A stretch of DNA of 64,000 nucleotides from Fidelibacterota bacterium (lineage in GTDB: Bacteria; Fidelibacterota; Marinisomatia; Marinisomatales; Marinisomataceae), in the NCBI GenBank assembly GCA_019650355.1, contig BOWX01000001.1:128234-192233 (forward strand), given 5' to 3'. This document shows, piece by piece, positions 1,927 to 60,656 of the stretch. How positions within the stretch are numbered: the stretch's first letter is position 1; each line of letters opens with the position of its first letter. Both the position numbers and the translations under genes were made by a program. The notes beneath the pieces were generated by a model. It saw only the letters and a list, made by a program, of their open reading frames with translations. It was not told the origin of the DNA and made no database searches.

Positions 1927-3261
1927 TTGATGCAAAAAATAACGATTAAAAAGGGGCATAATATTAACATTTCTGGGCTTGCTTCCAGAGAATTTTCTAA
2001 CGCGCCTACACAAAAATTTGTTTCGATTTCTCCTCAAGATTTTAATTACATCAAGCCAAAGCTTTTAGTTAAAGAAGGTGATCAAGTTTCTCTAGGTGAT
2101 GCTTTATTTTTTGACAAAACGAATCCTGAAGTTAAATGGCCATCAATTGCTTCTGGAACTATTTCTAAAATTGTTTATGGAGAAAGAAGAGCAGTTCTTG
2201 ATATCATTATTGAAGTAGACGAAGAAAAAGAAAAAAATATTGAATCAGATAAGCAAATCAATCTTTCATCAAAAGATAATGTAAAGGAGTTCATTCAAAA
2301 ACATAATTTTTGGCCCTTTTTTACACAAAGACCTTTTAATAAAGTTGTTAATCCTAGCGATAGTCCTAAATGTATTGTAGTAAGTCTTGCTGATTCTTCG
2401 CCATTAGCAAATGATTTATCTTTTTCATTAGCTGAAAACAAAGAATACATCATTTCTGCATTGTCTAATCTTAAGAAACTTACTGATGGACAACTTTATG
2501 TTGCTGTTAGGGGCGATAACTTTTCATTTTTGTCCGATTATGATTTTATCAATTTGATTCAAGTTGAGGGACCACACCCATCTGGTAATGTTGGTGTTAT
2601 TTTAAATAGAGTAAATCCTTTGAACCAGAATGAAGTTGTTTGGACTGTACAAGGAAGTCACTTACCAGTTTTAGGAAAGCTATTTTCCAAAGGTATTATC
2701 GATTTTTCTTTGAATATTTGTATTGGAGGACCTGCTGTAAAGCCTTCGTATATCAAATCTCGAATTGGCGCTAGATTTGATTTATATAAAGATTCTTTAT
2801 TGATGGAAAATGTTAGAATTATATCTGGTAATGTATTAACAGGAAAACATGTTGATATTGATGGCTTCTTAGGATTTTATCATTCATCTTTTTCCGTAAT
2901 TGAAGAATCATATGAAAGACCTTTTATTGGTTGGTTGCATCCAGGTGGAAAATCAAAGTATAGTGTTTTCAATGCCTACCTAGGATCAAACAAGAAAAGT
3001 TTTGATTTTACTACATTGCAAAATGGAAGTAACAGAGCATTCGTTCCTATTGATGCATGGGAGAAAGTTTTTCCAATGGATATTTATATAAATGCATTAG
3101 CCAGAAGTATTGAAGCAAATGATATTGATGAAATGGAGCAGCTTGGTATTTATGAATGCGATGAAGAAGATGTTGCATTATGTTCTTTTGTATGCCCAAG
3201 TAAATCTGATGTAGGTGCAATTATTAGGAAAGGTTTAGATACAATTTATTTTGATAAGTAA
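1927..3261 (+). CDS. nqrA: Na+-translocating NADH:quinone oxidoreductase subunit A
   Basis: 444 aa ORF heading a six-gene cluster in canonical nqrABCDEF order. The N-terminus is NqrA-like (MQKITIKKGHNINISG). ATG at 1930 is an alternative start to TTG at 1927. Confidence 0.9.
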   Translation: MMQKITIKKGHNINISGLASREFSNAPTQKFVSISPQDFNYIKPKLLVKEGDQVSLGDALFFDKTNPEVKWPSIASGTISKIVYGERRAVLDIIIEVDEEKEKNIESDKQINLSSKDNVKEFIQKHNFWPFFTQRPFNKVVNPSDSPKCIVVSLADSSPLANDLSFSLAENKEYIISALSNLKKLTDGQLYVAVRGDNFSFLSDYDFINLIQVEGPHPSGNVGVILNRVNPLNQNEVVWTVQGSHLPVLGKLFSKGIIDFSLNICIGGPAVKPSYIKSRIGARFDLYKDSLLMENVRIISGNVLTGKHVDIDGFLGFYHSSFSVIEESYERPFIGWLHPGGKSKYSVFNAYLGSNKKSFDFTTLQNGSNRAFVPIDAWEKVFPMDIYINALARSIEANDIDEMEQLGIYECDEEDVALCSFVCPSKSDVGAIIRKGLDTIYFDK

Positions 3262-3263
3262 TT

Positions 3264-4469
3264 ATGAATTTTTTAAGAAAAATATTTGAAGAAACTGGAA
3301 AATTTGTAGAAAAAGGTAAACCTCTATCTTGGGCTTATCCTGTTTGGGAAGCTGCAGATACTATTTTCTTTTCTACCAATAAACAAACAAGTAAAGGTCC
3401 TCATATTAGAGATAATATGGATATCAAAAGAACTATGTTCTTTGTTGTGATAGCTCTTATTCCTTGTTATATATTTGGAGCTTATAATATTGGCTATTTA
3501 AATGCTCTTGCCATGGAAATTGAAAGAGGTATTGTTGGAAATACTATTTTTGGATTCACCTATGTCATTCCAATTTTAATTGCAACTTTTGTTGCAGGTG
3601 CAATATGCGAGTTAACATTTGCAATAATTAGGAAGCATGAAGTCAATGAAGGTTTCTTAGTTAGTTGTGCATTAATACCTCTCACTATGCCACCAGATGT
3701 TCCTTTATGGCAAGTATTTATTGGAACAAGTTTTGGAATAATTATTGGTAAGGAAATTTTTGGTGGAGTAGGAACAAACATTTTTAATCCTGCTTTGACA
3801 TCAAGAGCATTTATGTATTTTGCTTTTCCTACAAAGATATCTGGGGATAAAGTATGGGCTGTAGGTCCTGATGGATATAGTGGAGCTACTGCATTAGCAA
3901 TTCCTGCAAATCCAGTAGAATATGATACTGCTTCAAATCTTTTTGCAGCTAATACACAATTTGATTACTCGACTTTAAATATGTTTTGGGGTTTAATTCC
4001 AGGATCTATTGGTGAGACAAATAAGCTATTAATATTATTAGGTGCCTTCTTCCTAATTTATTGCGGTATAGCATCATGGAGAATTATGCTTTCTTCTGTT
4101 TTGGGCTTAGTCTTTACTGCACTGCTTTTTAATTTATTAAACTATTTAACTGTTGATGGCATCCTGCAAGCTGGTGGTTTTCCAAATGCAATGTTAACAA
4201 TTACTCCTTTACAGCACATTTTGATTGGTAGTTTCTTATTTGGTACTGTTTTTATGGCTACTGAGCCTGTCACTTCATCTCATACCAACACAGGAAGATG
4301 GATTTACGGCTTTTTGATTGGAGTATTAACTGTCATAATTCGTTCAATAAATCCAGCATATCCTGAAGGTGTATTTTTAGCAATATTAATTATGAATATG
4401 TTTGCTCCATTAATAGATTATTATGTAGTTCAAGCAAACATAAAAATGAGGTTAGCAAGAAATGTATAG
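3264..4469 (+). CDS. nqrB: Na+-NQR subunit B
   Basis: 401 aa polytopic membrane protein. 'GYSGATAL' matches the SGAT flavinylation motif of NqrB. Confidence 0.9.
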   Translation: MNFLRKIFEETGKFVEKGKPLSWAYPVWEAADTIFFSTNKQTSKGPHIRDNMDIKRTMFFVVIALIPCYIFGAYNIGYLNALAMEIERGIVGNTIFGFTYVIPILIATFVAGAICELTFAIIRKHEVNEGFLVSCALIPLTMPPDVPLWQVFIGTSFGIIIGKEIFGGVGTNIFNPALTSRAFMYFAFPTKISGDKVWAVGPDGYSGATALAIPANPVEYDTASNLFAANTQFDYSTLNMFWGLIPGSIGETNKLLILLGAFFLIYCGIASWRIMLSSVLGLVFTALLFNLLNYLTVDGILQAGGFPNAMLTITPLQHILIGSFLFGTVFMATEPVTSSHTNTGRWIYGFLIGVLTVIIRSINPAYPEGVFLAILIMNMFAPLIDYYVVQANIKMRLARNV

Positions 4470-5217
4470 TAATAATTACACTCTTTTTTTCGTTTTTATT
4501 GTAACTGTTGTTTTGGGAACAATGCTCTCATTTACAAAGGATAGTGTTAAAGATTTACAGGATCAAAATCTTAAAGCTGATGTCCAAAAAACTATCTTAA
4601 GATCATTAAACTTTGACGAAAGTTTATTACTAACCAATGAAAGTATTGAGCAAACATTCAAGAGCTCTATTGATGCTAAATGTGTAAATGTTGAAGGTGA
4701 GATTGTAGAGTGCAATATTGAAGAAGTTGATATTGAAAAAAATGAGGATACTTTACCAATTTACATAAGAATGGATAATGACGAAGTCCAAGGAATTGCT
4801 CTTCCAATAGCTGGAAAGGGCCTTTGGTCAACAATTTTTGGATATATTGCCTTAAATCCTGATACAGATTCTGTTTTAGGTATTCAATTTTATAAACATG
4901 GTGAGACTCCTGGCTTAGGTGGTGAAGTTGAAAAAAAATGGTTTACTGATAATTTTGTCAATCACCCTATAAAGCAACCAGGCGGAGAAATACAATATGT
5001 ACCAAAAAAAATCCGCGATAAATCTGGAAAAATCATTAGCATTAAAGTTGTTAAGGGTGGAGTTGATTATTCTGAATCAAATACTTCTTCAATTCATCAG
5101 GTAGATGGTATTTCTGGTGCTACAGTTACTGCGGATGGTGTTACTGACTTTTTACTAGAAGATTTATTAAGATATGAAAAAACTTTAGATAAAATAAGAG
5201 ATTATGGAACTATTTAA
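4462..5217 (+). CDS. nqrC: Na+-NQR subunit C
   Basis: 251 aa with a single N-terminal TM helix. 'GISGATVT' is the SGAT FMN-attachment motif. Confidence 0.85.
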
Positions 5218-5856
5218 TTCAGAATCAAAAAAAATTGTTAGTGATCCTATAAATGTTAATAATCCAATATCATTACAGGTTCTAGGAATTTGCTCAGCTT
5301 TAGCTGTCACAATTAGACTAGATCAAGCTATAATTATGACTCTAGCTGTTGTTTTTGTTTTATGCTCATCTAATGTTATACTTTCTCTAATTAGAAATTA
5401 CATTCCTACTCGCGTTAGAATTGTTATAATGCTATCTGTGATTGCATCTCTTGTGTCAGTGGTAGATGAATTATTAAAAGCATATTTATACGATATGAGT
5501 AAACAGCTTTCAGTTTTTGTTGGGTTAATTATTACAAATTGTATCATTATGGGTCGTGCTGAGGCATTTGCTTTAAAACATGGACCATCTAAAGCATTTT
5601 TAGATGGTTTGGGAAATAGCATGGGTTATGGATTAATAATTATTGTTGTTTCTTTTTTAGAGAGCTTTTTGGGGCAGGAACTATTACGCTTCCGGATGGT
5701 GGAGCAGGTTATGTTTTATGGAGAATTCCTGAATCGTGGTATGCAGCAGGATATGAAAATATTGGTTTGTTAGTTTTATCTCCTGGAGCATTTATTATTT
5801 TGGGTTTAGTAATATGGATTCAAAGGGAGTTTGCTGGTGTTGAGGAGGACGCATAA
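5204..5856 (+). CDS. nqrD: Na+-NQR subunit D (frame broken at a T6 run)
   Basis: ORF 5204-5773 is NqrD-like up to about 5655. After T6 (5653-5658) the other frame reads [65 protein letters not shown]. It ends TAATG-coupled to nqrE. Confidence 0.85.
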
Positions 5857-6479
5857 TGACAGGTGTTGAACACTATCTAAGTATCTTTACCAAAGCAGTA
5901 TTCATTGAAAATATCGTTTTAGCCTATTTTTTAGGTTTGTGTTCATTTTTAGCTATTTCAAAGAAGATTGATGCTTCCGTTGGAATCGGACTAGCTGTGA
6001 TTGTTGTTCTTACAATTACAGCTCCTATTAACTGGTTTCTTTGGGAATTCTTACTTGATAAAGGTGCTCTTGTATGGATTAGTCAAGATTTTAAAGATAC
6101 AGATTTAGGTTTTTTAAAATTAATAGTTTTCATATCTGTTATAGCTGCAATGGTTCAATTGGTTGAAATGTTTATGGAAAGATTCTCACAATCTTTGTAT
6201 AATAGTCTTGGAATTTTTCTTCCATTGATTGCTGTTAATTGTTCAATTTTAGGTGGATCATTATTTATGGTAGAAAGAGAATACACCATTTCAGAAACAG
6301 TCGTTTATGGTTTTGGTTCAGGTGTTGGTTTCTTCTTAGCAATTGTAGCTTTAGCATCAATCAGATATAGAATAAGGTATTCTAATATTCCTCCTAGGTT
6401 AAGAGGAGTGGGAATGGCTATGTTGTTAACTGGATTATTATCAATGGCCTTTATGGCATTTTCGGGGATCGATTTATAA
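5856..6479 (+). CDS. nqrE: Na+-NQR subunit E
   Basis: 207 aa, six-TM NqrE/RnfA-like protein at the expected operon position. Confidence 0.9.
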   Translation: MTGVEHYLSIFTKAVFIENIVLAYFLGLCSFLAISKKIDASVGIGLAVIVVLTITAPINWFLWEFLLDKGALVWISQDFKDTDLGFLKLIVFISVIAAMVQLVEMFMERFSQSLYNSLGIFLPLIAVNCSILGGSLFMVEREYTISETVVYGFGSGVGFFLAIVALASIRYRIRYSNIPPRLRGVGMAMLLTGLLSMAFMAFSGIDL

Positions 6480-7704
6480 TGAGTGATATTTTATTAGGAG
6501 TAATTGTTTTTTCATCAGTAATACTTTTGTTAGTTATAATTCTTAATGTTTTAGGAGATATTCTTCTTCCACAAGGAGAAGTCACATTATTAATTAATGA
6601 TGATGTAGATAAATCTATTAATGTTCAAACTGGAGGTACAGTCCTTTCGGCTTTAGCAGCACAAAACGTTTATTTGCCATCCGCTTGTGGAGGACAAGGA
6701 ACTTGTGCACAATGTAAATGCCAGGTTACTGAAGGTGGAGGAGATATTTTACCTACTGAAGAAGCATATATTTCTCGTGGAGACCAAAAAGATAATTGGA
6801 GATTAGGCTGTCAAGTAAAAATTAGAAATGATATGAAAATAAAAGTACCCGACGAAATATTCAGTATTAGAAAATGGGATGCTGTTGTTAAATCAAATGA
6901 TAATGTAGCTACTTTTATTAAAGAATTAATTTTAGAACTACCAGAAGACGATCCAATCCAGTTTGAATCTGGTGGCTATATTCAAATTGATGTACCTGAA
7001 TATAAAGGATTAGAATATAAAGATTTCGAAATTCAAGACTTGTATACTAGTGACTGGGATAAATTCGATATTTGGCAATATGTTGCAGAAAATAAAGAGC
7101 CAGTTTTCAGAGCTTATTCAATGGCAAATCATCCTGCAGAGGGTAACATGATTATGTTAAATATTAGAATTGCTAGTCCTCCACCAGATAACCCATCTGC
7201 ACCTCCAGGAATAGCTTCTTCATATGTTTTTGATCTCAAAGAAGGAGATAAGGTAACTGTATCAGGACCGTATGGTGAATTCTTCATCAAAGACACCGAC
7301 CGTGAAATGGTTTACATCGGAGGTGGTGCTGGAATGGCTCCATTAAGATCTCATATTTTTCATTTACTTAAAACTGAAAAATCTAAACGAAAAATTTCAT
7401 TTTGGTATGGTGCTAGATCAGAAAAAGAAATGTTTTATGATGATGAATTCAAAGCCTTAGCAGAAGAATTTGATAATTTTAGTTATCATGTCGCTCTATC
7501 TGATCCACTACCGGAAGATAACTGGGAAGGTCCAACAGGATTCATTCATCAGGTTGCACATGAATGTTATTGAGAGATCATGAAGATCCTACTGAATGTG
7601 AGTATTATTTATGTGGTCCTCCAATGATGATTAGTGCTGTTCAAAAAATGCTCTGGGACTTAGGCGTTGAAGAAGATATGATCGCTTATGATGACTTTGG
7701 CTAA
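6479..7704 (+). CDS. nqrF: Na+-NQR subunit F (frame broken near 7570)
   Basis: N-terminal TM helix, 2Fe-2S motif [15 protein letters not shown] motif RAYSMAN, NAD fold GGGAGMAP. After TT at 7570-7571 the shifted frame gives [44 protein letters not shown], the normal NqrF C-terminus. Confidence 0.9.
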
Positions 7705-17505: not shown

Positions 17506-17913
17506 ATGAATAAAGTCACTACATCAACTCTTATTATTTTTGTCTTAATTGCTGGTTGGGTATTTTATCTAACGAATATTAAGAAAGATGATTCATTGAC
17601 TGTGAGATATTATTCTATTTCTGAACTAGCTATTGAATCAAATGATATTCAAAAAATAAAAGTTGGTGGTTACATAAAACCAAATTCAATAGATATCTCA
17701 GAAGATGATCAACTTGAAGTTTCTTTTTTTGTATATCAAAATAATGATAGTGTAAAGGTAACCTATTATGGAATTAGACCAGACCTCTTTAAAGATGATG
17801 CTGAGGTTGTAGTCTCTGGTTCATACTCTAATAATCTTATTTCAGCCACAGAATTGCAAACTAAATGTGCCTCCAGATACGAGGGCGATCTTAAAAACAT
17901 AGAAAAAATATAA
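17506..17913 (+). CDS. ccmE: Cytochrome c maturation haem chaperone CcmE, CxxxY variant
   Basis: 135 aa with an N-terminal TM anchor and OB-fold-like body. The C-terminal 'TKCASRYEG' sits where canonical CcmE has HxxxY. Confidence 0.8.
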   Translation: MNKVTTSTLIIFVLIAGWVFYLTNIKKDDSLTVRYYSISELAIESNDIQKIKVGGYIKPNSIDISEDDQLEVSFFVYQNNDSVKVTYYGIRPDLFKDDAEVVVSGSYSNNLISATELQTKCASRYEGDLKNIEKI

Positions 17914-19883
17914 TGATTTCTCAAATTGGTAGTATTGCAATCAGCCTAGCTGGAGGATTAATTTTTTCTTCATTTATATTTTTAGGTTTTTTCAAAAAAT
18001 TTAAGAATCAAACATATTTACAGGTCGCTGAAAGAGCAATTCTAGCAACTTCATATTGTATTTTTTTAGCATTTTTTTGTCTATTAAATGAATTATTAAT
18101 TAGCAATTTTAATTTACAATATGTAGCTCAATATACTAGCTATGAAACCCCTGTCTTTTATAAGGTTACTGCACTATGGGCTGGACAAGCTGGCTCATTA
18201 TTGTTTTGGTCTTTTATAACGGCTCTTTTTGCAGTTACATATATTTTTACAACTTTGAAAAAATTGAAAACATTAAAATTCCACTCTTATATAATTTTAT
18301 CTTTTATCTTTTCTTTTTTTATTCTCCTTTCAAATTTTATTGCAAATCCATTTGAACCTGTTTCTTCTGATATTATTGTTCAAAATGGAAACGGTCTAAA
18401 TCCATTATTACAAAATTTCTTTATGGCTATTCATCCTCCAATACTTTATGTCGGTTTTACTGGTTCAGCTATTATTTTCATAATGGCACTTGCAGCATCT
18501 ATATCAAGAGATATTTCCTTTGAATGGGTTCAATCTATTAGAAGATGGTCTTTATTTGTATGGACATTCTTATCTGCAGGTATCATTCTTGGAGGATATT
18601 GGGCATATAACGAGCTAGGATGGGGAGGATATTGGGCTTGGGATCCAGTTGAAAATTCATCATTAATGCCATGGCTTACATTAACAGCTTTCATTCATTC
18701 ATCAATGATTCAAGAAAAGAGAGGCATGTTAAAGAAATGGAACTTTTTACTTGCTACTTCAACTTACATACTTGTTATTCTTGGAACATTTATTACTAGA
18801 AGTGGAGTAATTTCATCTGTCCATTCATTTACAGCTGAAAATCTTGGTCCAATGTTTTTTGCATTTTTAGCGATACTAATTCTTTATACTGTTTTCTGGT
18901 TTTTTAAAAGAAAATCTTATTTAGATACTCCAGATAAAATTGATTCTTTTACATCAAGAGAAGGTGGATTTTTGTATAATAATTTAATTCTCATTTTAAT
19001 GTGTTTCACAATTATGTGGGGAACTCTATTTCCAATTTTATCTGAGGCATGGGATGGTAATAAGATTTATGTGGGAGCTTCTTATTTTAACCAATTAAAC
19101 ATTCCAATAGGACTTGTATTATTATTTTTAATGGGAATTGGACCATTACTTTCTTGGAATTATACTTCTCAAAGTGTCTTATTAAATAGATTTAAATTAC
19201 CATTAAGTATCAGTTTTTTATCTGGAATAGGATATATAATATTTTCAAGTTTATTTCAGTTATATGTTTTTGTCGCGATAATGGGTGTTTCATTTACCCT
19301 AAGCTCAATTCTAGGTGAATTTTATAAATCCTTTAAAAAACAAAAGAACTCATCAAATTTTTTACATTCTATTGTTAAAATGTTCTTAAGCAACAGACAT
19401 AAAAATGGAGGTTATATAGTACATATTGGAATTGTTTTATTATTCATAGGTTTCATTGGAAGAGCTTTTGAAGTTGAAAAAGAGTTTAGTTTATCACCAG
19501 GTGAACAAATTTATTTTTCTAATTATGTTTTTAAGTTAAATAGTATTAAAAGTGAAGCTAGAGATAATCACTATGCCTTTTTAAGTGAAATAGATGTTGT
19601 AGATAGTAGTACTAATCAATTATTGACTAATCTGAAGCCCGAGAAACGTATTTATTTTTATTGGAATTCAGATCCGGAAAAAAGACAACCTCATAGTGAG
19701 TTAGATATCTATAGTACTATTCAAAAAGATATATATTCCATTTTTTCTGGCTATGATGCACAGAAAAACATTGGTTATTTCAAAATAATGATTAATCCTT
19801 TGGTAAATTGGGTTTGGATTGGTGGAGTACTGATGGTAATTGGTTCTCTTTTTGCTTTCTGGCCATCAAGAAGAAATAATTAA
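17913..19883 (+). CDS. ccmF: Cytochrome c-type biogenesis protein CcmF
   Basis: 656 aa polytopic protein with the WWD motif 'WGGYWAWDPVEN'. Confidence 0.9.
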   Translation: MISQIGSIAISLAGGLIFSSFIFLGFFKKFKNQTYLQVAERAILATSYCIFLAFFCLLNELLISNFNLQYVAQYTSYETPVFYKVTALWAGQAGSLLFWSFITALFAVTYIFTTLKKLKTLKFHSYIILSFIFSFFILLSNFIANPFEPVSSDIIVQNGNGLNPLLQNFFMAIHPPILYVGFTGSAIIFIMALAASISRDISFEWVQSIRRWSLFVWTFLSAGIILGGYWAYNELGWGGYWAWDPVENSSLMPWLTLTAFIHSSMIQEKRGMLKKWNFLLATSTYILVILGTFITRSGVISSVHSFTAENLGPMFFAFLAILILYTVFWFFKRKSYLDTPDKIDSFTSREGGFLYNNLILILMCFTIMWGTLFPILSEAWDGNKIYVGASYFNQLNIPIGLVLLFLMGIGPLLSWNYTSQSVLLNRFKLPLSISFLSGIGYIIFSSLFQLYVFVAIMGVSFTLSSILGEFYKSFKKQKNSSNFLHSIVKMFLSNRHKNGGYIVHIGIVLLFIGFIGRAFEVEKEFSLSPGEQIYFSNYVFKLNSIKSEARDNHYAFLSEIDVVDSSTNQLLTNLKPEKRIYFYWNSDPEKRQPHSELDIYSTIQKDIYSIFSGYDAQKNIGYFKIMINPLVNWVWIGGVLMVIGSLFAFWPSRRNN

Positions 19884-19973
19884 ATGGAAATTTTTAATCA
19901 ATTCTTTATATTCTTTTTTCTTTTGGTCACAATTTTTTATGTTTTTTGGCCAATTATTAAGCAGATGAAATAA
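19884..19973 (+). CDS. Hypothetical 29-aa single-TM mini-protein between ccmF and ccmA
   Basis: MEIFNQFFIFFFLLVTIFYVFWPIIKQMK. Its ATG immediately follows the ccmF stop, and its stop is TAATG-coupled to the ccmA start. It exactly fills the gap between the two genes. Confidence 0.35.
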   Translation: MEIFNQFFIFFFLLVTIFYVFWPIIKQMK

Positions 19974-20572
19974 TGTTACAAGTAAAAAATCTTTCAAAAT
20001 CTTTTTCAAGTACACCAATATTGAATAATATAAATTTTTCTTTAGGGCTTGGAGAAATTTGTGCTGTTGTAGGAAATAATGGTTCTGGAAAAACTACTTT
20101 TCTTAAATGTCTTTCAGGATTAATGAATTTTGAGAGCGGATCCATAAATTTTAATTCTACAAAAGGTCATCTTTTTTTAAGTGATAAACTAAATATTTTC
20201 GGTGATTTAACTATTGAAGAAAACCTAAAGGTAATTTCTACGTATCATAATCAAAATTATGATACAAGAGTTTTTAATGATTCCCTTTTGGAGCTTAATA
20301 TTAGACAATTTAAAGAAATGCCATTAAAATTATTATCAAGGGGTAACATCCAAAGAAATAAGCTTTGTTTAGCAATGAATTTAAATTGGGATTATTTATT
20401 GATTGATGAACCGTTTAGTAATTTGGATACTGATGGTATTAAAATTTTTAAGGATATTTTTAATAATTTTAAATCAAAAAATAGGTCTATCATTTACTCA
20501 ACACATCAAAATTATCAAGAATTAAATTATGATAAGATTATTTCAATAGAAAACTTTAAGGGCATAAAATGA
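19973..20572 (+). CDS. ccmA: Haem exporter ABC ATPase CcmA
   Basis: 199 aa. Walker A 'GNNGSGKTT', signature-like 'LSRGNIQR', Walker B 'LLIDEP'. Sits within the ccm cluster. Confidence 0.8.
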   Translation: MLQVKNLSKSFSSTPILNNINFSLGLGEICAVVGNNGSGKTTFLKCLSGLMNFESGSINFNSTKGHLFLSDKLNIFGDLTIEENLKVISTYHNQNYDTRVFNDSLLELNIRQFKEMPLKLLSRGNIQRNKLCLAMNLNWDYLLIDEPFSNLDTDGIKIFKDIFNNFKSKNRSIIYSTHQNYQELNYDKIISIENFKGIK

Positions 20573-21228
20573 TTTTAAAACTCATGAAAAATGAATTTTT
20601 TTTAGAAAAAAAATCTTCATTTAATTTATTATATATTTCTTTTTTTGCAATATCATGTTTGATGTTTTTGCTTTTTTCATTCCCTTTATCCAAAATTTAT
20701 GACTCAACAGTATTTTCTGGATTCTTTTGGATTATTATTTCTCTTTCAACAATCAAGCTTATTGAAAATTCTTTTGCTAGAGAAAAAGATTATAATATTT
20801 ATGATCTTATTTATTCATCTTCAATTGATTTGACAAAGATTTATTTTGCTAAAATATTATCACTCAGTTTAATTCTTTTAGGGGTACAATTTATAATATT
20901 TTTTGGCTATATGATTTTATCTGATTTGAGTTTTGAAATTATATCAAATCTTATTTTATTAAGTATCGTTACAAACTTTGGATTATTATCTTTTGGTATA
21001 TTGATTTTTTTATTAACAAATACAAATACTTCAAAAAGCTTTTTATTTCCAGTTATATTTTTTCCTTTAATAGTTCCAATTCTTATAAATGCATCAAATA
21101 TTCTTTTTGGTATTATTATTGGAGAAATGTCATCTTTATATATTGAATCTTGGTTGATATTATTAACTTTTGCCTTAACTGGAATCCTTCTAGGAATAAA
21201 TTTATTTGAAAGGCTAATTAAACAATAA
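20569..21228 (+). CDS. ccmB: Haem exporter membrane subunit CcmB
   Basis: 219 aa, six-TM protein between ccmA and ccmC. The call rests on position and topology. Confidence 0.7.
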   Translation: MILKLMKNEFFLEKKSSFNLLYISFFAISCLMFLLFSFPLSKIYDSTVFSGFFWIIISLSTIKLIENSFAREKDYNIYDLIYSSSIDLTKIYFAKILSLSLILLGVQFIIFFGYMILSDLSFEIISNLILLSIVTNFGLLSFGILIFLLTNTNTSKSFLFPVIFFPLIVPILINASNILFGIIIGEMSSLYIESWLILLTFALTGILLGINLFERLIKQ

Positions 21229-21875
21229 TGAGCTTAACTTTTTTTATAATAACCATTTTCTTAATGATTACAAATTTAATTTGGATGATTTTTTTTACTC
21301 CAATGGTTCCTAATCAAGAGTGGGCGCAAAAAATATTTTATCTTCATGTACCCATAGCGTGGTCTGGATTTTTAGCTTATTTCATTGTGATGGTAAGTGG
21401 AATTTGTTATCTCTATACAAAAAATCTTAAATATGATAGAATTGGCCTTGCTTCTGCTGAGATAGGAACTATTTTTACTGCTTTAGTATTAATTACAGGG
21501 CCTATTTGGGCAACACCAATTTGGGGTCAGCCTTGGGTGTGGGAACCAAGATTAATTACTACTCTAGTACTATTTCTGATTTATGTAGGATATTTTATTA
21601 TGAGAAATATTGGGCTATATCGTCAAAGAGCAGCACTTGTATGTGCCATTATTGGAATTATTGCATTTTTAGACATTCCAATAATTTTTGCATCAGTGAA
21701 TTTTTGGGCAGCTGAAATTCAATCTCATCCTCAGCTAGGCATGAATAAACAGCCGTCTGGGATTTTAAATCCATTTTTATTTTCATTGTTATCATTTACA
21801 TCATTGATGATTTTAATGCTATTATTAAAAATAGAAGTTTTAAAAAAGAAAGATATTGAGGATAGATATGTTTAA
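21228..21875 (+). CDS. ccmC: Haem exporter/haem lyase subunit CcmC
   Basis: 215 aa with the WWD motif 'WGQPWVWEPRL'. Confidence 0.9.
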   Translation: MSLTFFIITIFLMITNLIWMIFFTPMVPNQEWAQKIFYLHVPIAWSGFLAYFIVMVSGICYLYTKNLKYDRIGLASAEIGTIFTALVLITGPIWATPIWGQPWVWEPRLITTLVLFLIYVGYFIMRNIGLYRQRAALVCAIIGIIAFLDIPIIFASVNFWAAEIQSHPQLGMNKQPSGILNPFLFSLLSFTSLMILMLLLKIEVLKKKDIEDRYV

Positions 21876-21966
21876 TTATTTATCTTATTTTTTGTCAGCA
21901 CTTTTTGTTGTATTTATTACTATTTTAACTTGGTTTATTATTAACGTAAAAAAATATAGAAATTAA
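21868..21966 (+). CDS. CcmD-like 32-aa single-TM protein, absent from the ORF track
   Basis: MFNYLSYFLSALFVVFITILTWFIINVKKYRN. Its start overlaps the ccmC end by 8 nt, which is the position of ccmD in System I operons. Confidence 0.45.
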   Translation: MFNYLSYFLSALFVVFITILTWFIINVKKYRN

Positions 21967-21984: not shown

Positions 21985-23049
21985 ATGGAACGAAAAATTG
22001 TACATGTTGTTGGAACTGGAACTATTGGCGAACCACTGATAGGCATTCTTTGTGAGCAAAAAAGTAATTTAGGAATTGATGAGGTTACATTTCATAAACA
22101 ATCCCCTTTAACAAAAGATGCTCCTAAGATTAAAAATTTAATAGCGAAAGGTGCTAGGCTTGCAGTGCATGAAGATAGAGTCGAAAGTTTTAAAGAAATT
22201 GGTTTAGAACCTGAATTTACAATGGAAGAAGCTGTTTCTAGAAGTTCAGTTGTAATTGATTGTACTCCTAAGGGGTTTGGTCACCAAAATAAAGCAGATT
22301 TTTATGAAAAATATGCTGATAAAGTTAAAGGTTTTCTAGCTCAAGGCAGTGAAAATGGATTTGGAAAAAAATATGCTCGAGGAATTAATGACCATGTTAT
22401 CAATTCAGAAGATCAATTTTTACAAGTTGTTTCTTGCAATACCCATAATATTGCATGTCTAGTTAATACCATAGCATTAAGCATCTCTCCAGATAACCTT
22501 ATTGATGGAAAATTTGTTTGTGTTAGGAGAAGTAATGACATAAGTCAAACAGGTAGTTTTGTTCCTGCTCCTACAGTTAATGACCATGGACATCCAGTTT
22601 ACGGAACTCATCATGCAGAAGATGCAGCAGGATTATTTAAAACAATGAATCTTGACCTTGATTTTTTTTCTTCAGCAATGAAGGTTAATTCTCAATATAT
22701 GCATACTGTATGGTTTAATTTGAAGCTTAAAGAGCCTACTTCTAAACAAAAGGTTATTGATTTGCTTTCAAGTAATGATAGAGTGTCATTAACAGAGCAT
22801 CACTCAACAAATGAGGTATTTTCATTTGGAAGAGACCAAGGACTGTATGGAAGAATTTTAAATCAAACTGTCATTGTTGAAGATTCTATAAATGTGCGTA
22901 ATGATCACGAAGTTTCAGGATTTTGTTTTACTCCACAAGATGGAAACTCAATACTTTCAAGTATTGCTGCAACTGTTAGATTTTTGAATCCACATTCCTA
23001 CCAAGATAAAATTAATTCTTTGGGTGGATTCTTTTTTGACAGAGTATAA
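21985..23049 (+). CDS. Archaeal-type (type II) glyceraldehyde-3-phosphate dehydrogenase-like NAD(P) dehydrogenase
   Basis: 354 aa. 'VVGTGTIG' Rossmann fold, 'VIDCTPKGFG', catalytic 'VVSCNTHN', 'THHAEDA', 'SQYMHTV'. These parallel the archaeal GAPDH blocks VIDCTPEG / VVSCNTTG / SHHGPDV / TLMHQH. Confidence 0.55.
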   Translation: MERKIVHVVGTGTIGEPLIGILCEQKSNLGIDEVTFHKQSPLTKDAPKIKNLIAKGARLAVHEDRVESFKEIGLEPEFTMEEAVSRSSVVIDCTPKGFGHQNKADFYEKYADKVKGFLAQGSENGFGKKYARGINDHVINSEDQFLQVVSCNTHNIACLVNTIALSISPDNLIDGKFVCVRRSNDISQTGSFVPAPTVNDHGHPVYGTHHAEDAAGLFKTMNLDLDFFSSAMKVNSQYMHTVWFNLKLKEPTSKQKVIDLLSSNDRVSLTEHHSTNEVFSFGRDQGLYGRILNQTVIVEDSINVRNDHEVSGFCFTPQDGNSILSSIAATVRFLNPHSYQDKINSLGGFFFDRV

Positions 23050-28577: not shown

Positions 28578-30053
28578 ATGTTAAAAGATAAGATTTTAGA
28601 TTTATTGAACCGGTCAGATTTTATGACTTTATCAACAAGCGTTGCTGGTAATTCTTCTGCAGCGAATGTCTATTTTGCAAATGACGGATTAGATATATAC
28701 TTTTTCACTTTCAATCCGTCAAGAAAAGCTGTACAAATTTCCATTAATCCTAAGGTTCAATGTGTAATTAGACCTGATGGAGAAGAAGGTATAAAGGAGT
28801 TGCAAATTGATGCACATGCTTCGAAAGTAACAGATGAGGATGAAGTTGAAAAAGCTAAGAAAGCAATTCTTAATGTCACTGAAGCTTTTTCAGAATATAT
28901 GCATGATGATTTTTTGATTGCCAATGATGTAATAGGGTACTATAAAATTCAGCCAACAACAATAAAATATGTTGATTTTTATGCTGAAAAACAATTTGAA
29001 TGGATGGAAGTTCCTGAAAATAGAATTGGATTATTTAAAGAAGTAAAAAATAATATACTAAATACTTTAAAATATTGGATTACTGTTGTAAGAGCACCTT
29101 TTTTAACAGCTACCATTGCTCCAATCATGCTTGGTTCTGCTATTGCATATAAACAGTTTGAGGTCTTTGATTGGTCGATATTTTGGATGGTATTATTTGG
29201 TGCAGTTTGTGCTCAAATTGGTACAAATAATATTAATGATTATTTTGATCATAAATCTAGAAATGATGAAATGAATAAGTTGGCTAGTCCATTTAACGGC
29301 GGATCAAGAGCTATTCAATCTGGATTAATTACCCCTACAAATATGCTTCTGCTTTCAATTTTCTTTTTTTCATGTACAATCCTAGTTGGTCTTAATCTAA
29401 ATAACCTCTTCTTTGACGGAAGAGTTGATTCAGTTTTAATGTATCTAGGATATTTGGGTATATTTTTGGGAGTGATGTATACTGGATTTTTTAAACTTGC
29501 ATACAATGGTCTTGGCGATTTAGCAGTATTTATTGGTTTTGGTCCTCTTATGGTGTATGGTGCAGCTTTGCTGCAAAACTTAGCAGTAGCACCAACTCAA
29601 TCAATTGATCCAATAGTGACATTATTTTACTCAGTTCCTGTTGGAATATTTATTGCTTTAGTCCTTTTTATAAATTGTTTCCAAGATTATAATGCTGATA
29701 AGGCTGCAAATAAAAATAGCTGGGTTGTTAAATTGGCTGGCCCAGGTGAAAAAGCTAATTATAGAAAACCATTTTCAGTTTGGAAAAGTTTAATGGTTAT
29801 ATCATTTCTTTTGATTGTTGGAGCATCTGTTTATGCACAAAATTATTTTACATTAATTGCATTGATTCCATTACTTATTTTCAATTTTGCATCTAAGAAA
29901 GGTTCTGATTGGTTAGTTGAATGGGAAAAAGAAGATGCTAATCTTCAGCAATTACCTTATGAACTATTAATTGTTAATGTATCAACCATTGGAATTCACT
30001 TTTTAACTGGAGTACTATTAACAATTGGGGTATTACTAAGTGTATGGATTTAA
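28578..30053 (+). CDS. Fusion protein: N-terminal PNPOx-like FMN-binding split-barrel domain plus UbiA/MenA-family polyprenyltransferase
   Basis: Residues about 1-150 look like a soluble pyridoxamine-phosphate-oxidase-like/GSP26-like fold. The remainder has about 8 TM helices, with Asp-rich motifs 'NDYFDHKSRND' and 'QDYNADKAANK'. Confidence 0.65.
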   Translation: MLKDKILDLLNRSDFMTLSTSVAGNSSAANVYFANDGLDIYFFTFNPSRKAVQISINPKVQCVIRPDGEEGIKELQIDAHASKVTDEDEVEKAKKAILNVTEAFSEYMHDDFLIANDVIGYYKIQPTTIKYVDFYAEKQFEWMEVPENRIGLFKEVKNNILNTLKYWITVVRAPFLTATIAPIMLGSAIAYKQFEVFDWSIFWMVLFGAVCAQIGTNNINDYFDHKSRNDEMNKLASPFNGGSRAIQSGLITPTNMLLLSIFFFSCTILVGLNLNNLFFDGRVDSVLMYLGYLGIFLGVMYTGFFKLAYNGLGDLAVFIGFGPLMVYGAALLQNLAVAPTQSIDPIVTLFYSVPVGIFIALVLFINCFQDYNADKAANKNSWVVKLAGPGEKANYRKPFSVWKSLMVISFLLIVGASVYAQNYFTLIALIPLLIFNFASKKGSDWLVEWEKEDANLQQLPYELLIVNVSTIGIHFLTGVLLTIGVLLSVWI

Positions 30054-31139
30054 AAGAAGCATATTCATTATCTTTAGAAAAATATAATCAAATTAGGAGG
30101 CATCTTTGACCTTGAATCAAAGACTTCTGATCTCCAAAAATTAAAAGAGCAAATTTCTGATCCCACAATGTGGGATAATAACTCTGAATCTACCACTGTA
30201 ATGAAAAAAATATCTTTTCTTGAAAAAGATATTTCCTTGAGGAAAAATCTTGTTCAAAAAGCTGAAGATGTAGAAGTACTGTTTGAATTTTTAAATGAAA
30301 ATCAAGTTGAAGAAGAAGAAGTTAAAAAAGAGCTTAAAATCTTTTCTAATCTTCTTAAGGAGTTTGAATTAAAACTTATATTAAATGGTGATAATGATAT
30401 TAACGATGCCATAATTACAATTCATCCAGGTGCAGGAGGTACAGAAAGTCAAGATTGGGCTGAAATGCTTTATCGTATGTATTCTATGTGGGCTGAATCT
30501 AAAGGTTTTAAATTTAATGTTATTGACTTCCAAAACGGTGATGAGGCCGGATTAAAAGATTGTACAGTGGAAATTTCTGGTGATTATGCTTATGGTTTAT
30601 TGCAAGCTGAGATTGGTATTCATAGACTAGTTAGAATTTCACCATTTGACTCTAACAGCAGAAGACATACTTCATTCGCTTCAGTGTCAGTTTCTCCAGC
30701 AGTTAATGAGGATATTGATATTGAAATTAATCAAAAAGATTTAAGGGTAGATACGTTTAGGTCAAGCGGTGCTGGCGGTCAACATGTAAATAAAACAGAT
30801 TCAGCAATAAGAATAACTCATATACCATCAGGTATTGTTACTCAATGTCAAACGCAAAGATCTCAGCACAAAAATAAAGAACAAGCTTTAAAAGTATTAA
30901 AATCAAAACTTTTTCAATTAGAAGTGGAGAAGCAGCTTCTCAATAAAAAAGAGCTTGAAGGAGAAAAAAAAGATATTGGTTGGGGTAGTCAAATTAGATC
31001 CTATGTTTTTCATCCTTATAACATGATTAAAGATCATAGAACCAAACATGAAGTAGGAAATATAAAATCAGTTATGGACGGTAATATTGATGATTTTATA
31101 TATAGTTATTTGTTAGATAAAATGGAAAAAAATAAATAA
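30044..31139 (+). CDS. prfB: Peptide chain release factor 2, with programmed +1 frameshift
   Basis: The 21-codon frame-0 leader MDLKEAYSLSLEKYNQIRRHL ends at CTT TGA C (30104-30110). The +1 frame continues DLESKTSDLQKLKEQISDPTMWDNN... SPF and GGQ motifs lie downstream. Confidence 0.95.
30095..30110 (+). promoter_or_regulatory. prfB autoregulatory +1 frameshift site (internal SD-like AGGAGG + CUU UGA C)
   Basis: AGGAGG at 30095-30100, a 3-nt spacer, then CTT TGA C at 30104-30110. Confidence 0.9.
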
Positions 31140-35634: not shown

Positions 35635-37557
<1,923 letters not shown>

Positions 37558-58085: not shown

Positions 58086-60656
58086 ATGCATTCAATGTAC
58101 AAAAAAATTCTTTTTTTAGCTCTTTTTAGCTTTGCGATAGGTCAGCACCATAATCATGATCATAGTCTTACAGATGACGGCTACATCCGTTGTGCTACAG
58201 ATGAGCTCGAACAAGAGCTTCAACTTTTAAATCCTGAATTCATTGCTGAAAGAGATGCTCAGATTCTTAAAGCACAGCAATTAATTAGAAATAATCCTCA
58301 ATGGAGAACAAGTAACAATTCGCAAAATACAATTTTCGTTCCAGTAATATTCCATGTATTATATAATTCTGCATCTGACAATATTTCTGCTTTTCAAATA
58401 GGAGAAAACTTTGATCAAATAAATTTAGATTTCTCGAATACAAATCCTGATGGTGATGAAATACCATCTGCTCCAAATCCTTCGGATGCTCCATTTGATC
58501 CAGGTGTAGATTATAGTCATCAGTCAGTAAGAGGGACTCATAATGTTGTATTTGTAGGTTCATTAGGTGAGTCTACTGGAGCTCAATTAATTGAAGGTCA
58601 AACAATAAGAAGATATAACATTAGCCAAAGCACTGTAAGTGGCGTGGGTGAAGCTAGTAGTCTTGCTTCTTCAGTGCCTACTGATAGTGGTGTCGAAGGC
58701 GGATATCAGGATGGATTTTTAAATATTTATATTGCTCCTTTGACAGGAGGATTACTTGGACAAGCATATCTTGGTTTTCCAGAATCTGTTGTTTTAGGCG
58801 GTTCTGTGGGATCAGTTGAAAATCCAGGAACCACTGGTGGCTATAATAGAGGAAGAACTCTTACTCATGAGTTAGGACATAATTTTACCTTTAACCATAC
58901 ATTTAATTCTAATAGTTGTGGAAATCAGTTGTGGGTGATATTCCAGCTCAGACTGTTAATAATCGTGGAGCAAATATTTACGAGTGGCCATCTGGTAGTG
59001 GTAATTTTTATGGTAGAAGTGCTGAAAATAGTTGTATTTCATCAAGTGGTATGGGTGATCAATTCATGAATTATATGGACTATGTTTATGATGATCAAAT
59101 GAGAATGTTTTCAGAAGAACAAGCTTTAGATGGCTATGCTTGGGCAGCAAGCAGAAATTGGGCTCAGGTTGTTAATGGAGTAATAACTCAGGTTTCTTCA
59201 AGTGTTTCATATGCAACTTCTAACAGAGAATTTACAGTTGATGTTACTTTTGATGAAGTAGTTACTGGTTTTACTCAAGAAGATATTGTTTTAGAAAATG
59301 CAACAGTTGTAAACTTTAATTCTGGAGATGGACAAAATTATAGTTTCGATGTACAAGCTATAGTAGATGGTGAAGTTGAAGTGTCTATTGCAAGAGAAAG
59401 TTGCGTTGGAGTTGACAGTGGAGATGCTAATTTAGGATCAAATAAACTTGTGGTAATTGTTGATACTTCCGCACCTGAAGTGGGTACAGTGGACATCGGA
59501 AATATTCAAGATACATTTTATATTACTTCGCAAAATCCAGGATTAAATCTTGTTCTTAAGGATTTTGAAGATGATGTAAGTGGCGTAAGTAATTATTATG
59601 TGTCAGTTGGTCTTTCACCAACTGGACAAGAAATATATCCCGCTACAGCTTTTTCAAGCGCATTTATATCTATAGATGAAAGTAGCTTATCTGGTTTAAG
59701 TGATTTCCAACAATATTATGTAAATGTGTATGCTCGCAACCTTGTTGGGTTGGATTCTGAAATTGTTAGTAGCACATTTTACTATTTTGGAAGCTTGATT
59801 GGTGACCATGATGGTGATTGGGATATTGATTTTGTTGATTATGCTTATTTTATTGCAAATTATCCTGGAATTGATATTGCACCTGTTACTGGAAGCGCAC
59901 CTTATTTCTTCCCAAATTTTGACGGAATTTCAGACGAAAAAGATTTAAATATGTTTCAATCTCAATGGAACTGGTCCTTAGACCAATCACGAAGAGATGA
60001 ACCAAATTATACTCAATCATCAGGACCTGGTATTAGGCCTACTTTGAGATTATTGAATCAGCAGTTAATTGTTACATTTGATCCAGATGCATCAACATCT
60101 CAGTTCTATTTAGAATATGCACCTGATGATTATACCATTGATTATCTTTCAAGTAATCTTAATTCAAATATAGTTTTAAATGGAAATGATTATGATCAGG
60201 GTATTATTCAAATGGAAATTGCTGACTACAGTTTTAATAGATCTAATCCGATTGAATTAACATTTAGTTTTGAAAATAACACTGATTCTTACGACTTTTT
60301 GAAGTATAGTTTTTCAACTTATAATAAGTCCAATCAAATTGTTGCAGAAGGGTATGATTATCTTCAAACTGCTCCCCTTTAAACTATCGTTTAGCAAAAA
60401 GTTTCAAATCCGTTTTCAACAGGAGGTACTACTATAGAGTTTGACTTGCCTGTAACAGAAGCTATATCAATGTATATACTTGATATTAGAGGTAGGAAGG
60501 TTAAGACCTTAATTGATAAAGAAAATCTTTTTGGATATCAGTCTGTAATGTGGGATGCGACAAATGATGATGGCGATAATGTATAGCGGTGTTTACTTCT
60601 ATCAGATTAAATCTCGCAACTTTAATGAAGTTGGCAAACTAGTATTTGTTAAGTAG
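58086..60656 (+). CDS. Secreted M43 (pappalysin/cytophagalysin-like) zinc metalloprotease with Ig-like and dockerin-like regions and a T9SS C-terminal sorting domain. About 4 frame breaks.
   Basis: Signal peptide, zinc site 'HELGHNFTFNHTF', 'GDIPAQT' and 'FMNYMDYVYDDQMRMFSEEQ'. 'GDHDGDWDIDFVDY' is a Ca-binding-like loop. The tail reads (K)VSNPFSTGGTTIEFDLPVTEAISMYILDIRGRKVKTLIDKENLFGYQSVMWDATNDDGDNV / SGVYFYQIKSRNFNEVGKLVFVK*. Breaks are at 58922-58924, 60374-60383, 60396-60400 and about 60581-60585. Confidence 0.75.

Follow-up and report, generated by a model that had tools for sequence, protein, structure and literature searches.

We have analysed a 64-kb window (the whole stretch of 64,000 nucleotides) from a genome that database names and GTDB genome records assign to the Marinimicrobia, a lineage also named SAR406, 'Ca. 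Neomarinimicrobiota' or Fidelibacterota. On its plus strand, positions 17506-21966 hold seven co-directional open reading frames (ORFs) in the order ccmE-ccmF-orfX-ccmA-ccmB-ccmC-ccmD-like, which very probably constitute the cytochrome c maturation operon, of the Cys-type termed 'System I*', of streamlined pelagic Marinimicrobia. An earlier inspection of the bare DNA, to which we refer as the sequence-only reading, had proposed a variant System I with the order ccmE-F-(orf)-A-B-C-D, and both the location of the reading frames and their order were borne out by the ORF list and by searches of Pfam and NCBIfam.

Organization of the ccm block

The first gene of the block, ccmE (17506..17913), encodes a haem chaperone of 135 amino acids (PF03100, E=5.7e-21) and is followed by ccmF (17913..19883), whose 656-residue product is assigned as haem lyase or holocytochrome c synthetase (PF16327, E=1.5e-53; PF01578, E=1.1e-30). 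The next frame, orfX (19884..19973), specifies a microprotein of 29 residues with a single transmembrane (TM) helix (MEIFNQFFIFFFLLVTIFYVFWPIIKQMK), which is devoid of a direct family match. Two subunits of an ATP-binding cassette (ABC) transporter come after it, the ATPase encoded by ccmA (19973..20572), whose best NCBIfam match is to TIGR01189 with an E-value of 3e-29 that remains below the cutoff of that model, and the divergent membrane subunit encoded by ccmB (20569..21228; PF03379, E=4.6e-7, 29.9 bits vs a gathering score of 24.9). The haem-handling protein CcmC is encoded by ccmC (21228..21875; TIGR01191, 2.2e-34), and its end is overlapped by 8 nt by the ccmD-like ORF (21868..21966), a single-TM peptide of 32 residues starting with the ATG at 21868. 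Since all junctions overlap or abut (TAATG, ATGA, TAA-ATG and ATGTTTAA, with TAA-ATG and TAATG flanking orfX), the block appears to form one translationally coupled unit.

The block starts 3 nt downstream of a gene for methylmalonyl-CoA mutase (mcm), and a gene resembling type-II glyceraldehyde-3-phosphate dehydrogenase (GAPDH, gapII) begins 18 nt after its end. This arrangement, mcm-ccmEF-orfX-ccmABCD-gapII, is found in 39 Marinimicrobia loci whose CcmE proteins share 38-98% identity, with no extra genes inserted into the block in any close relative. A scan of promoters and terminators returned counts at the level of shuffled sequences, and the boundaries of the operon could not be placed. 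The GC content of the block (27%, compared to 31% for the window) fits membrane proteins that are rich in Phe, Ile and Leu.

A cysteine at the haem-binding position of CcmE

CcmE consists of an N-terminal TM anchor (approximately residues 3-27), an oligonucleotide/oligosaccharide-binding (OB) fold and a C-terminal tail with the motif C121-A-S-R-Y125. The codons of this motif span 17866..17880 on the plus strand and include, as described in the sequence-only reading, TGT at 17866-17868 for the predicted haem-attachment cysteine and TAC at 17878-17880 for the predicted axial tyrosine ligand. When searched with phmmer against proteins of solved structure, CcmE matches 1sr3/8ce8 (E=2.6e-9), 1j6q and 2kct. 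In the alignment with E. coli CcmE (8ce8_E), residues 49-125 pair with residues 58-134, gapless after residue 108, so that C121 falls on His130, which binds haem covalently in the E. coli protein, and Y125 on Tyr134. Likewise, the segment 'TKC' is aligned to the Cys of the CxxxY-type CcmE from Desulfovibrio vulgaris (2kct). The proposal that C121 occupies the haem-binding position of HxxxY proteins has thus held against members of both types, and the His that characterizes a classical System I is replaced by Cys at this column.

The cysteine is strongly conserved. A CAS(R/W)Y motif is present in 117 of the 120 closest database homologues of CcmE and (T/V)KCASR(Y/F) in all 38 intact CcmE proteins from the 39 syntenic loci, down to approximately 40% identity, with a single protein containing CASRF instead of CASRY. 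When 1.84 billion cluster representatives were scanned in full with HMMER and the 133 nearest representatives of 50%-identity clusters were aligned, 119/133 turned out to be of Cys-type and 10/133 of His-type. Most of them have the motif CPSKY, and a minority CAS(R/K)Y. Named neighbours with CAS(K/R)Y include Calditrichota, which belong to the Fibrobacterota-Chlorobiota-Bacteroidota (FCB) group, and Bdellovibrionales. With conservation of the motif in more than 150 sequences, a chance occurrence or sequencing error at Cys121 is ruled out. By these comparisons CcmE is typical of the large Cys-type clade to which it belongs, and the residue at the haem position, its fixation across the phylum and the composition of the nearest representatives all support the assignment to a variant System I.

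Components of haem handling and ligation

CcmF is closely related to its Thermus counterpart of known structure (6zmq_A, E=8.5e-91). Its WWD box (ELGWGGYWAWDPV, 18612-18650 on the plus strand within ccmF) reads GWGGYWAWDPVEN, and His174 (18432), His262 (18696), His304 (18822) and His504 (19422), on the same strand, are all aligned to His in the Thermus protein and invariant in 36 relatives. We take these residues to be the equivalents of H173, H261, H303 and H491 of E. coli CcmF. In CcmA, the Walker A (GNNGSGKT) and Walker B (YLLIDE) motifs are normal and the signature motif (LSRGNI) is degenerate. The ccmB gene is syntenic in all loci and its Pfam match, though weak, exceeds the gathering score, while no match to CcmB was found among PDB sequences.

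CcmC matches the E. coli protein 7f02_C with an E-value of 8.8e-21 and contains His40 (21345-21347), a tryptophan-rich box WGQPWVWE (21522-21545) and His167 (21726-21728), all encoded on the plus strand and invariant in 30 Marinimicrobia sequences. His40 corresponds to His60 of E. coli, the box (residues 99-106) ends in Glu at the position of E. coli Asp126, and the distal His167 is located three residues downstream of the column of E. coli His184, owing to a loop insertion. The statement that the WWD motifs are intact is therefore not literally true of CcmC, where Glu replaces Asp. The possibility that CcmC would lack the His184 ligand, considered since a Phe was aligned to an E. coli His, was rejected, as the His in question is His174, and His184 corresponds to His167 once the three-residue loop insertion is taken into account. 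A WxWE box is also found in two outgroup CcmC proteins from Cys-type clusters, one from a bin of the FCB group (L042, 12392-13060) and one from Bdellovibrionales (L043, 8974-9609). WxWE rather than WxWD (WGxxWxWE in full) is found in all Cys-type clusters examined, with three lineages sampled, and the box may co-vary with Cys-type CcmE.

The ccmD-like ORF is conserved across 27 loci. Its putative assignment as CcmD is based on its position after ccmC, its size and its one TM helix, and a profile of 16 sequences searched against the PDB retrieved no match, including the solved CcmD of E. coli. Taken together, the block encodes a haem-delivery module and a CcmF lyase equipped with WWD box and His ligands, as found in System I*.

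CcmH and CcmG are missing from the locus

As claimed in the sequence-only reading, no ccmG or ccmH is found in the cluster, and the same holds for the 64-kb window and for the regions within +/-10 kb of the block in close relatives. All frames of at least 60 residues in the window were searched for CxxCH, LRCxxC and thioredoxin-type CxxC motifs, and none contained a credible one. The locus is in this respect distinct from a classical System I, where CcmH with its LRCxxC motif and CcmG are encoded with the system.

More distant loci offer a different picture. In L039 (12358-12981) and L042 (10001-10582), a gene for a CcmH-like protein of approximately 200 residues is inserted between ccmF and the small gene that follows it, which we describe below as mini-CcmI. 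The L039 protein scores 23.6 bits against the Pfam model of CcmH, whose cutoff is 25, and it has 14 relatives among 5.8 billion proteins, 9 of which carry a precomputed PF03918 domain. These relatives make up a small deep-branching group with none from the streamlined clade. Instead of LRCxxC, the CcmH-like proteins contain an invariant vicinal Cys-Cys pair (ILMAPCCGGGT.AEH) and, in addition, an inserted region, and the CcmE of clusters with this gene still has CASRY. Since the gene is kept in deep relatives, the clade of the window appears to have lost it.

A 29-residue peptide between ccmF and ccmA

The frame between ccmF and ccmA, which had been noted as an anonymous '(orf)', exists but is more than filler. 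orfX recurs in all close loci, 12 of its 29 positions are invariant and its variable sites are concentrated at third codon positions (15/8/26 for the three positions). The pooled ratio of nonsynonymous to synonymous polymorphism (pN/pS) of 0.28 in frame, compared to 1.3-1.5 in the two shifted frames, points to purifying selection.

In the deeper Marinimicrobia L035, L036 and L038, the same slot is filled by a protein of approximately 90 residues, composed of an N-terminal TM helix and a subsequent charged helix (...RQIKELEMD..IGN.S.EDF...), and in L039 and L042 by a version of 125-152 residues with an extra zinc ribbon. The family of the ~90-residue proteins has 429 database members, all annotated as 'hypothetical'. 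When 28 diverse members were compared with TIGR03142, the model of the N-terminal domain of CcmI, 20 matched at positions ~2-72 of 118 with 21-28 bits (best E=2.6e-6), and so did, in about the same region (~2-72), the product of a 110-aa gene after ccmF in the Cys-type cluster of L043. CcmI contains two TM helices with a joining cytoplasmic region, which is sometimes leucine-zipper-like, and a periplasmic tetratricopeptide repeat (TPR) domain (PMC3884852). The similarity of the long slot proteins is to a fragment of this architecture and does not amount to membership in the CcmI family. The periplasmic TPR domain that binds apocytochromes is absent from both orfX and the ~90-residue forms, and orfX covers only the first TM helix of the unit of two helices and cytoplasmic loop. 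A profile of the 29-residue peptides can be aligned over its entire length to the N-terminal part of the longer proteins, in register from M1-M1 to P23-P23 (hhalign, E=2.1e-5, probability 77%).

We consider it probable, from its position and this short alignment, that orfX is a first-helix remnant of mini-CcmI. If so, the small unnamed gene of the Marinimicrobia ccm block, as a 29-residue CcmI remnant, would be a new detail of the system. A considerably less likely alternative is that an unrelated small membrane peptide, such as a second CcmD-like ABC subunit or a leader-type ORF, has come to occupy the slot. The similarity is limited to a single hydrophobic helix, where profile matches inflate easily, orfX itself matches neither TIGR03142 nor any other Pfam or NCBIfam model directly, and as it abuts ccmA it could belong to the CcmAB module. 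This alternative is countered by the shared position and orientation, by the pattern M-[ED]-...-hydrophobic-...-P-[LI]-[LI] common to orfX and the N-termini of the ~90-residue proteins with Pro23 in register, and by the CcmI matches of the latter in 20/28 cases.

A further protein near this slot was observed in the Bdellovibrionales locus L043, where a frame at 6500-7681, located between mini-CcmI and ccmA, encodes 393 residues without family match. It could be an unrecognised apocytochrome chaperone.

Evolution of the cluster

The order with ccmEF first, which the sequence-only reading had contrasted with the classical ccmABCDEFGH, is real and also found in the Cys-type clusters of L042 and L043, which makes it a trait of the variant and not something peculiar to the genome studied here. 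Given the CcmH-like gene of L039 and L042, an order ccmE-F-[H-like]-[mini-CcmI]-A-B-C-(D) appears to predate the pelagic radiation, with the clade of the window resulting from stepwise loss. The distribution of loci suggests an ancient cluster that has been passed on vertically within the phylum, a loss of the ccmH-like gene in pelagic clades and, in the clade of the window, an additional trimming of mini-CcmI from ~90 to 29 residues. A recent lateral transfer is not supported, given the phylum-wide synteny and the fact that neighbours with CAS(K/R)Y include Calditrichota, another lineage of the FCB group.

The Marinimicrobia ccm block was also encountered in two public metagenome-assembled genomes with other labels, L006 (CAJWRL010000092.1) labelled Gammaproteobacteria and L038 (PAWD01000039.1) labelled Thaumarchaeota. 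In both cases the label likely reflects contamination during binning.

Evaluation of the assignment

Several observations weigh against the described assignment. The window encodes no c-type cytochrome that could serve as substrate, and genes for CcmH, for CcmG/ResA-like proteins or for CcdA/DsbD may be located elsewhere in the genome. The ORF described earlier as CcmD-like agrees with such a protein in position, size and TM helix, but has no match to the CcmD models PF04995 and TIGR03141 in Pfam and NCBIfam, even at E<=10. All matches of mini-CcmI proteins to TIGR03142 fall just under the curated cutoff (28.4 bits for the best compared to 29.3), and the link of orfX to this family consists of a TM-helix alignment of 29 columns, at the stated hhalign probability, in conjunction with its position. 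The nature of the Cys-haem bond is itself disputed, as it was described to be covalent in D. desulfuricans and non-covalent in CcmE of D. vulgaris (PMC3884852). Finally, the mechanism outlined below is modelled on the systems of E. coli, Desulfovibrio and Methanosarcina. With respect to substrates, cytochrome c oxidases are encoded in SAR406 genomes and nrfAH in some of them (PMC5596340, PMC6143742), and c-type cytochromes are therefore to be expected.

We regard it as very unlikely that the locus is part of a classical System I in which Cys121 has no special role and the actual work is done by a canonical HxxxY CcmE together with CcmH and CcmG, all encoded elsewhere. This view would be compatible with the presence of CcmH in about one third of bacteria with a Cys-type system (PMC3601427). 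It is difficult to reconcile with a Cys whose spacing to Tyr is invariant across the phylum down to ~40% CcmE identity, with a CcmE clade that is ~90% Cys-type and with a cluster that is complete for A, B, C, D-like, E and F and under selection. The strong streamlining of these genomes, with a chromosome of 0.97 Mb in one relative, makes a duplicate system unlikely.

Slightly less probable still is a specialised lyase of the NrfE type serving one unusual cytochrome, such as the CxxCK haem of NrfA, in place of a general pathway. CcmF scores about equally on models of the CcmF/NrfE and NrfE subfamilies, in all cases below cutoff, and some SAR406 carry nrfAH. Yet modules of the NrfEFG type come without their own ccmABCDE while the lyase is here embedded in a complete operon for haem delivery. 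None of nrfA, nrfF and nrfG is found nearby, and the cluster also occurs in epipelagic clades that, according to the literature, are without genes of anaerobic respiration (PMC6143742).

Strongly disfavoured, and the least probable of these explanations, is that genome reduction has left the cluster decaying and without function, as several single-base indels that split ftsH, tilS, dnaK and a metallo-β-lactamase (MBL) hydrolase in the window might suggest. The ccm block contains no uncompensated indel, each of its seven ORFs has full length and is syntenic across the 39 loci, the ligand residues are invariant, and purifying selection extends even to the 29-residue orfX. As the split genes are essential and all relatives have them intact, the indels look like sequence errors.

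Proposed mechanism and comparison with known systems

By analogy to characterized systems, CcmC of this System I* operon would hold haem between His40 and His167, bound in the tryptophan-rich box, and present it to the membrane-anchored CcmE, where a haem vinyl group would bond to Cys121, probably as thioether, and Tyr125 would become an axial ligand. Holo-CcmE would be freed by CcmAB(D) upon ATP hydrolysis. CcmF is then expected to take over the haem by means of its WWD box, a pair of periplasmic His and a pair of TM His serving as ligands of haem b, and to ligate it to CxxCH apocytochromes with no CcmH partner encoded nearby. The orfX peptide most likely still packs on CcmF as a small accessory subunit, with its N-terminus oriented to the outside and its Lys-rich C-terminus to the inside.

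With the System I* of Desulfovibrio, the operon shares a Cys in place of the haem-binding His of CcmE and a Tyr four residues on, the lack of CcmH and of CcmG in an operon that contains CcmA, B, C, D, E and F, an accessory component of presumed CcmI-type, here reduced to 29 residues, and also the order of genes, which we take to be ccmE-F-A-B-C-D in Desulfovibrio. It differs in its motif CASRY, where CPSKY is the commonest, and in its host, an aerobic pelagic bacterium of the FCB group as opposed to an anaerobic sulfate reducer. Compared to E. coli ccmABCDEFGH (7f02, 8ce8, 1sr3), CcmA, B, C, E and F are homologous, including the His60 equivalent, tryptophan-rich box and distal His of CcmC and the OB-fold and Tyr134 equivalent of CcmE. 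Unlike in E. coli, His130 is replaced by Cys, CcmG and CcmH are absent from the operon, ccmEF come first, and in CcmC the box ends with Glu in place of Asp126 and the distal His is shifted by a three-residue insertion. The ~90-residue slot proteins resemble CcmI/CycH of Rhodobacter capsulatus and Pseudomonas aeruginosa in their first TM helix and charged cytoplasmic helix while being devoid of the second TM helix and the TPR domain. orfX resembles the first TM helix of these proteins, with a P-[LI]-[LI]-[KR] exit, and also lacks the cytoplasmic helix.

In 2006, genomes were reported to contain a Cys-type CcmE without CcmH, a system that was named System I* (PMC3601427). It has been studied in D. 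desulfuricans and D. vulgaris (Allen et al. 2006; Goddard et al. 2010; reviewed in PMC3601427), and the Desulfovibrio operon matured cytochromes in E. coli, where CcmI was enhancing but not essential (PMC3601427). By 2011, the system had been recognised in delta-proteobacteria, Chloroflexi, Firmicutes and all archaea, and the commonest motif of its CcmE was CPSKY (PMC3601427). In Methanosarcina, the Cys of CcmE is needed for haem attachment and CcmABCEF suffice for maturation (PMC9084895). The Marinimicrobia operon resembles this CcmABCEF system of Methanosarcina acetivorans (PMC9084895) in its CxxxY CcmE and minimal gene set, with no CcmH and no full CcmI encoded at the locus, and differs from archaeal systems, which have no CcmD, a CcmF split into CcmF1/F2 and dispersed genes, by its single CcmF, its one overlapping operon and the retention of a CcmD-like peptide and a putative CcmI vestige.

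Genomic context and sequence quality of the window

An operon for the Na+-translocating NADH:quinone oxidoreductase (Na+-NQR), mentioned in the sequence-only reading, was confirmed at 1927-7573. The presence of this operon and the GC content of 31% match the streamlined epipelagic clades described by Getz et al. (PMC6143742). The window also encodes MenA, the 1,4-dihydroxy-2-naphthoate (DHNA) polyprenyltransferase (28578-30053), fused to an N-terminal domain resembling pyridoxamine 5'-phosphate oxidase (PNPOx), which points to menaquinone as the quinone in this organism with Na+-NQR. An assignment of this UbiA-family ORF as haem O synthase with a role in the biogenesis of cytochrome c oxidase was rejected, as the frame is MenA. 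The archaeal-type, type-II GAPDH-like gene directly after the ccmD-like ORF (21985-23049; NF003251, E=1.3e-31, below cutoff) keeps its place in essentially all Marinimicrobia loci, and a gene of this type is uncommon in bacteria.

Compared to 4-5 close relatives, indels split the MBL hydrolase (210 residues), tilS (441 residues) and ftsH (631 residues), with uncompensated changes at ~23175, ~24525, ~24712 and ~25911 and also at 7563, 8167/8171 and ~14037, and dnaK (35656-37557) is broken into three ORFs. Because ftsH and dnaK are essential, the indels are probably errors of sequencing or assembly rather than signs of pseudogenes. Upstream of prfB (30168-31139), where the match to release factor 2 begins at model position 36, a classic programmed +1 frameshift site is located at 30095-30110 (AGGAGG CAT CTT TGA C). 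Three further frames have little or no assignment, a 754-residue ORF on the minus strand (61708-63972) without match in Pfam or NCBIfam, a 327-residue ORF (58086-59069) without match in NCBIfam and an ORF at 632-1840 with weak matches only, of NAD(P)-binding type and to proteins resembling the small subunit of glutamate synthase (GOGAT).

Implications

The system type was already described between 2006 and 2011, and Marinimicrobia are a new lineage for a known system and not a new system. In the literature searched we found no mention of CcmE together with Marinimicrobia. For specialists, the Cys-type CcmE, the absence of CcmH and the ccmEF-first order are already at textbook level, and the added value is modest, consisting of the putative mini-CcmI remnant, the CcmH-like protein with vicinal cysteines in deep relatives and the WxWE box of CcmC. 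System I* poses the chemical question of how the Cys-haem thioether on CcmE, normally a very stable bond, would be broken again and of how CcmF works without CcmH. In this context, the reduction series within the Marinimicrobia, from a ccmH-like gene with a zinc-ribbon mini-CcmI via the ~90-residue mini-CcmI to a helix of 29 residues, shows which accessory parts are dispensable, and the compact operon of seven genes is suited to heterologous reconstitution.

It is a tentative idea, and one we hold to be rather improbable, that CcmF and the 29 residues of the first CcmI helix make up a complete holocytochrome c synthetase in an aerobic bacterium of the oxic ocean, without CcmH, CcmG or a TPR chaperone anywhere in its genome of ~1 Mb. 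If it were true, no bacterial System I known so far would be more reduced, CcmF would need as its minimal element the first TM helix of CcmI, and the WxWE box of CcmC would be co-adapted to Cys-type CcmE. Marinimicrobia rank with the most abundant of the ocean's uncultured bacteria, and this reduced machinery would be required for all of their respiratory cytochromes.

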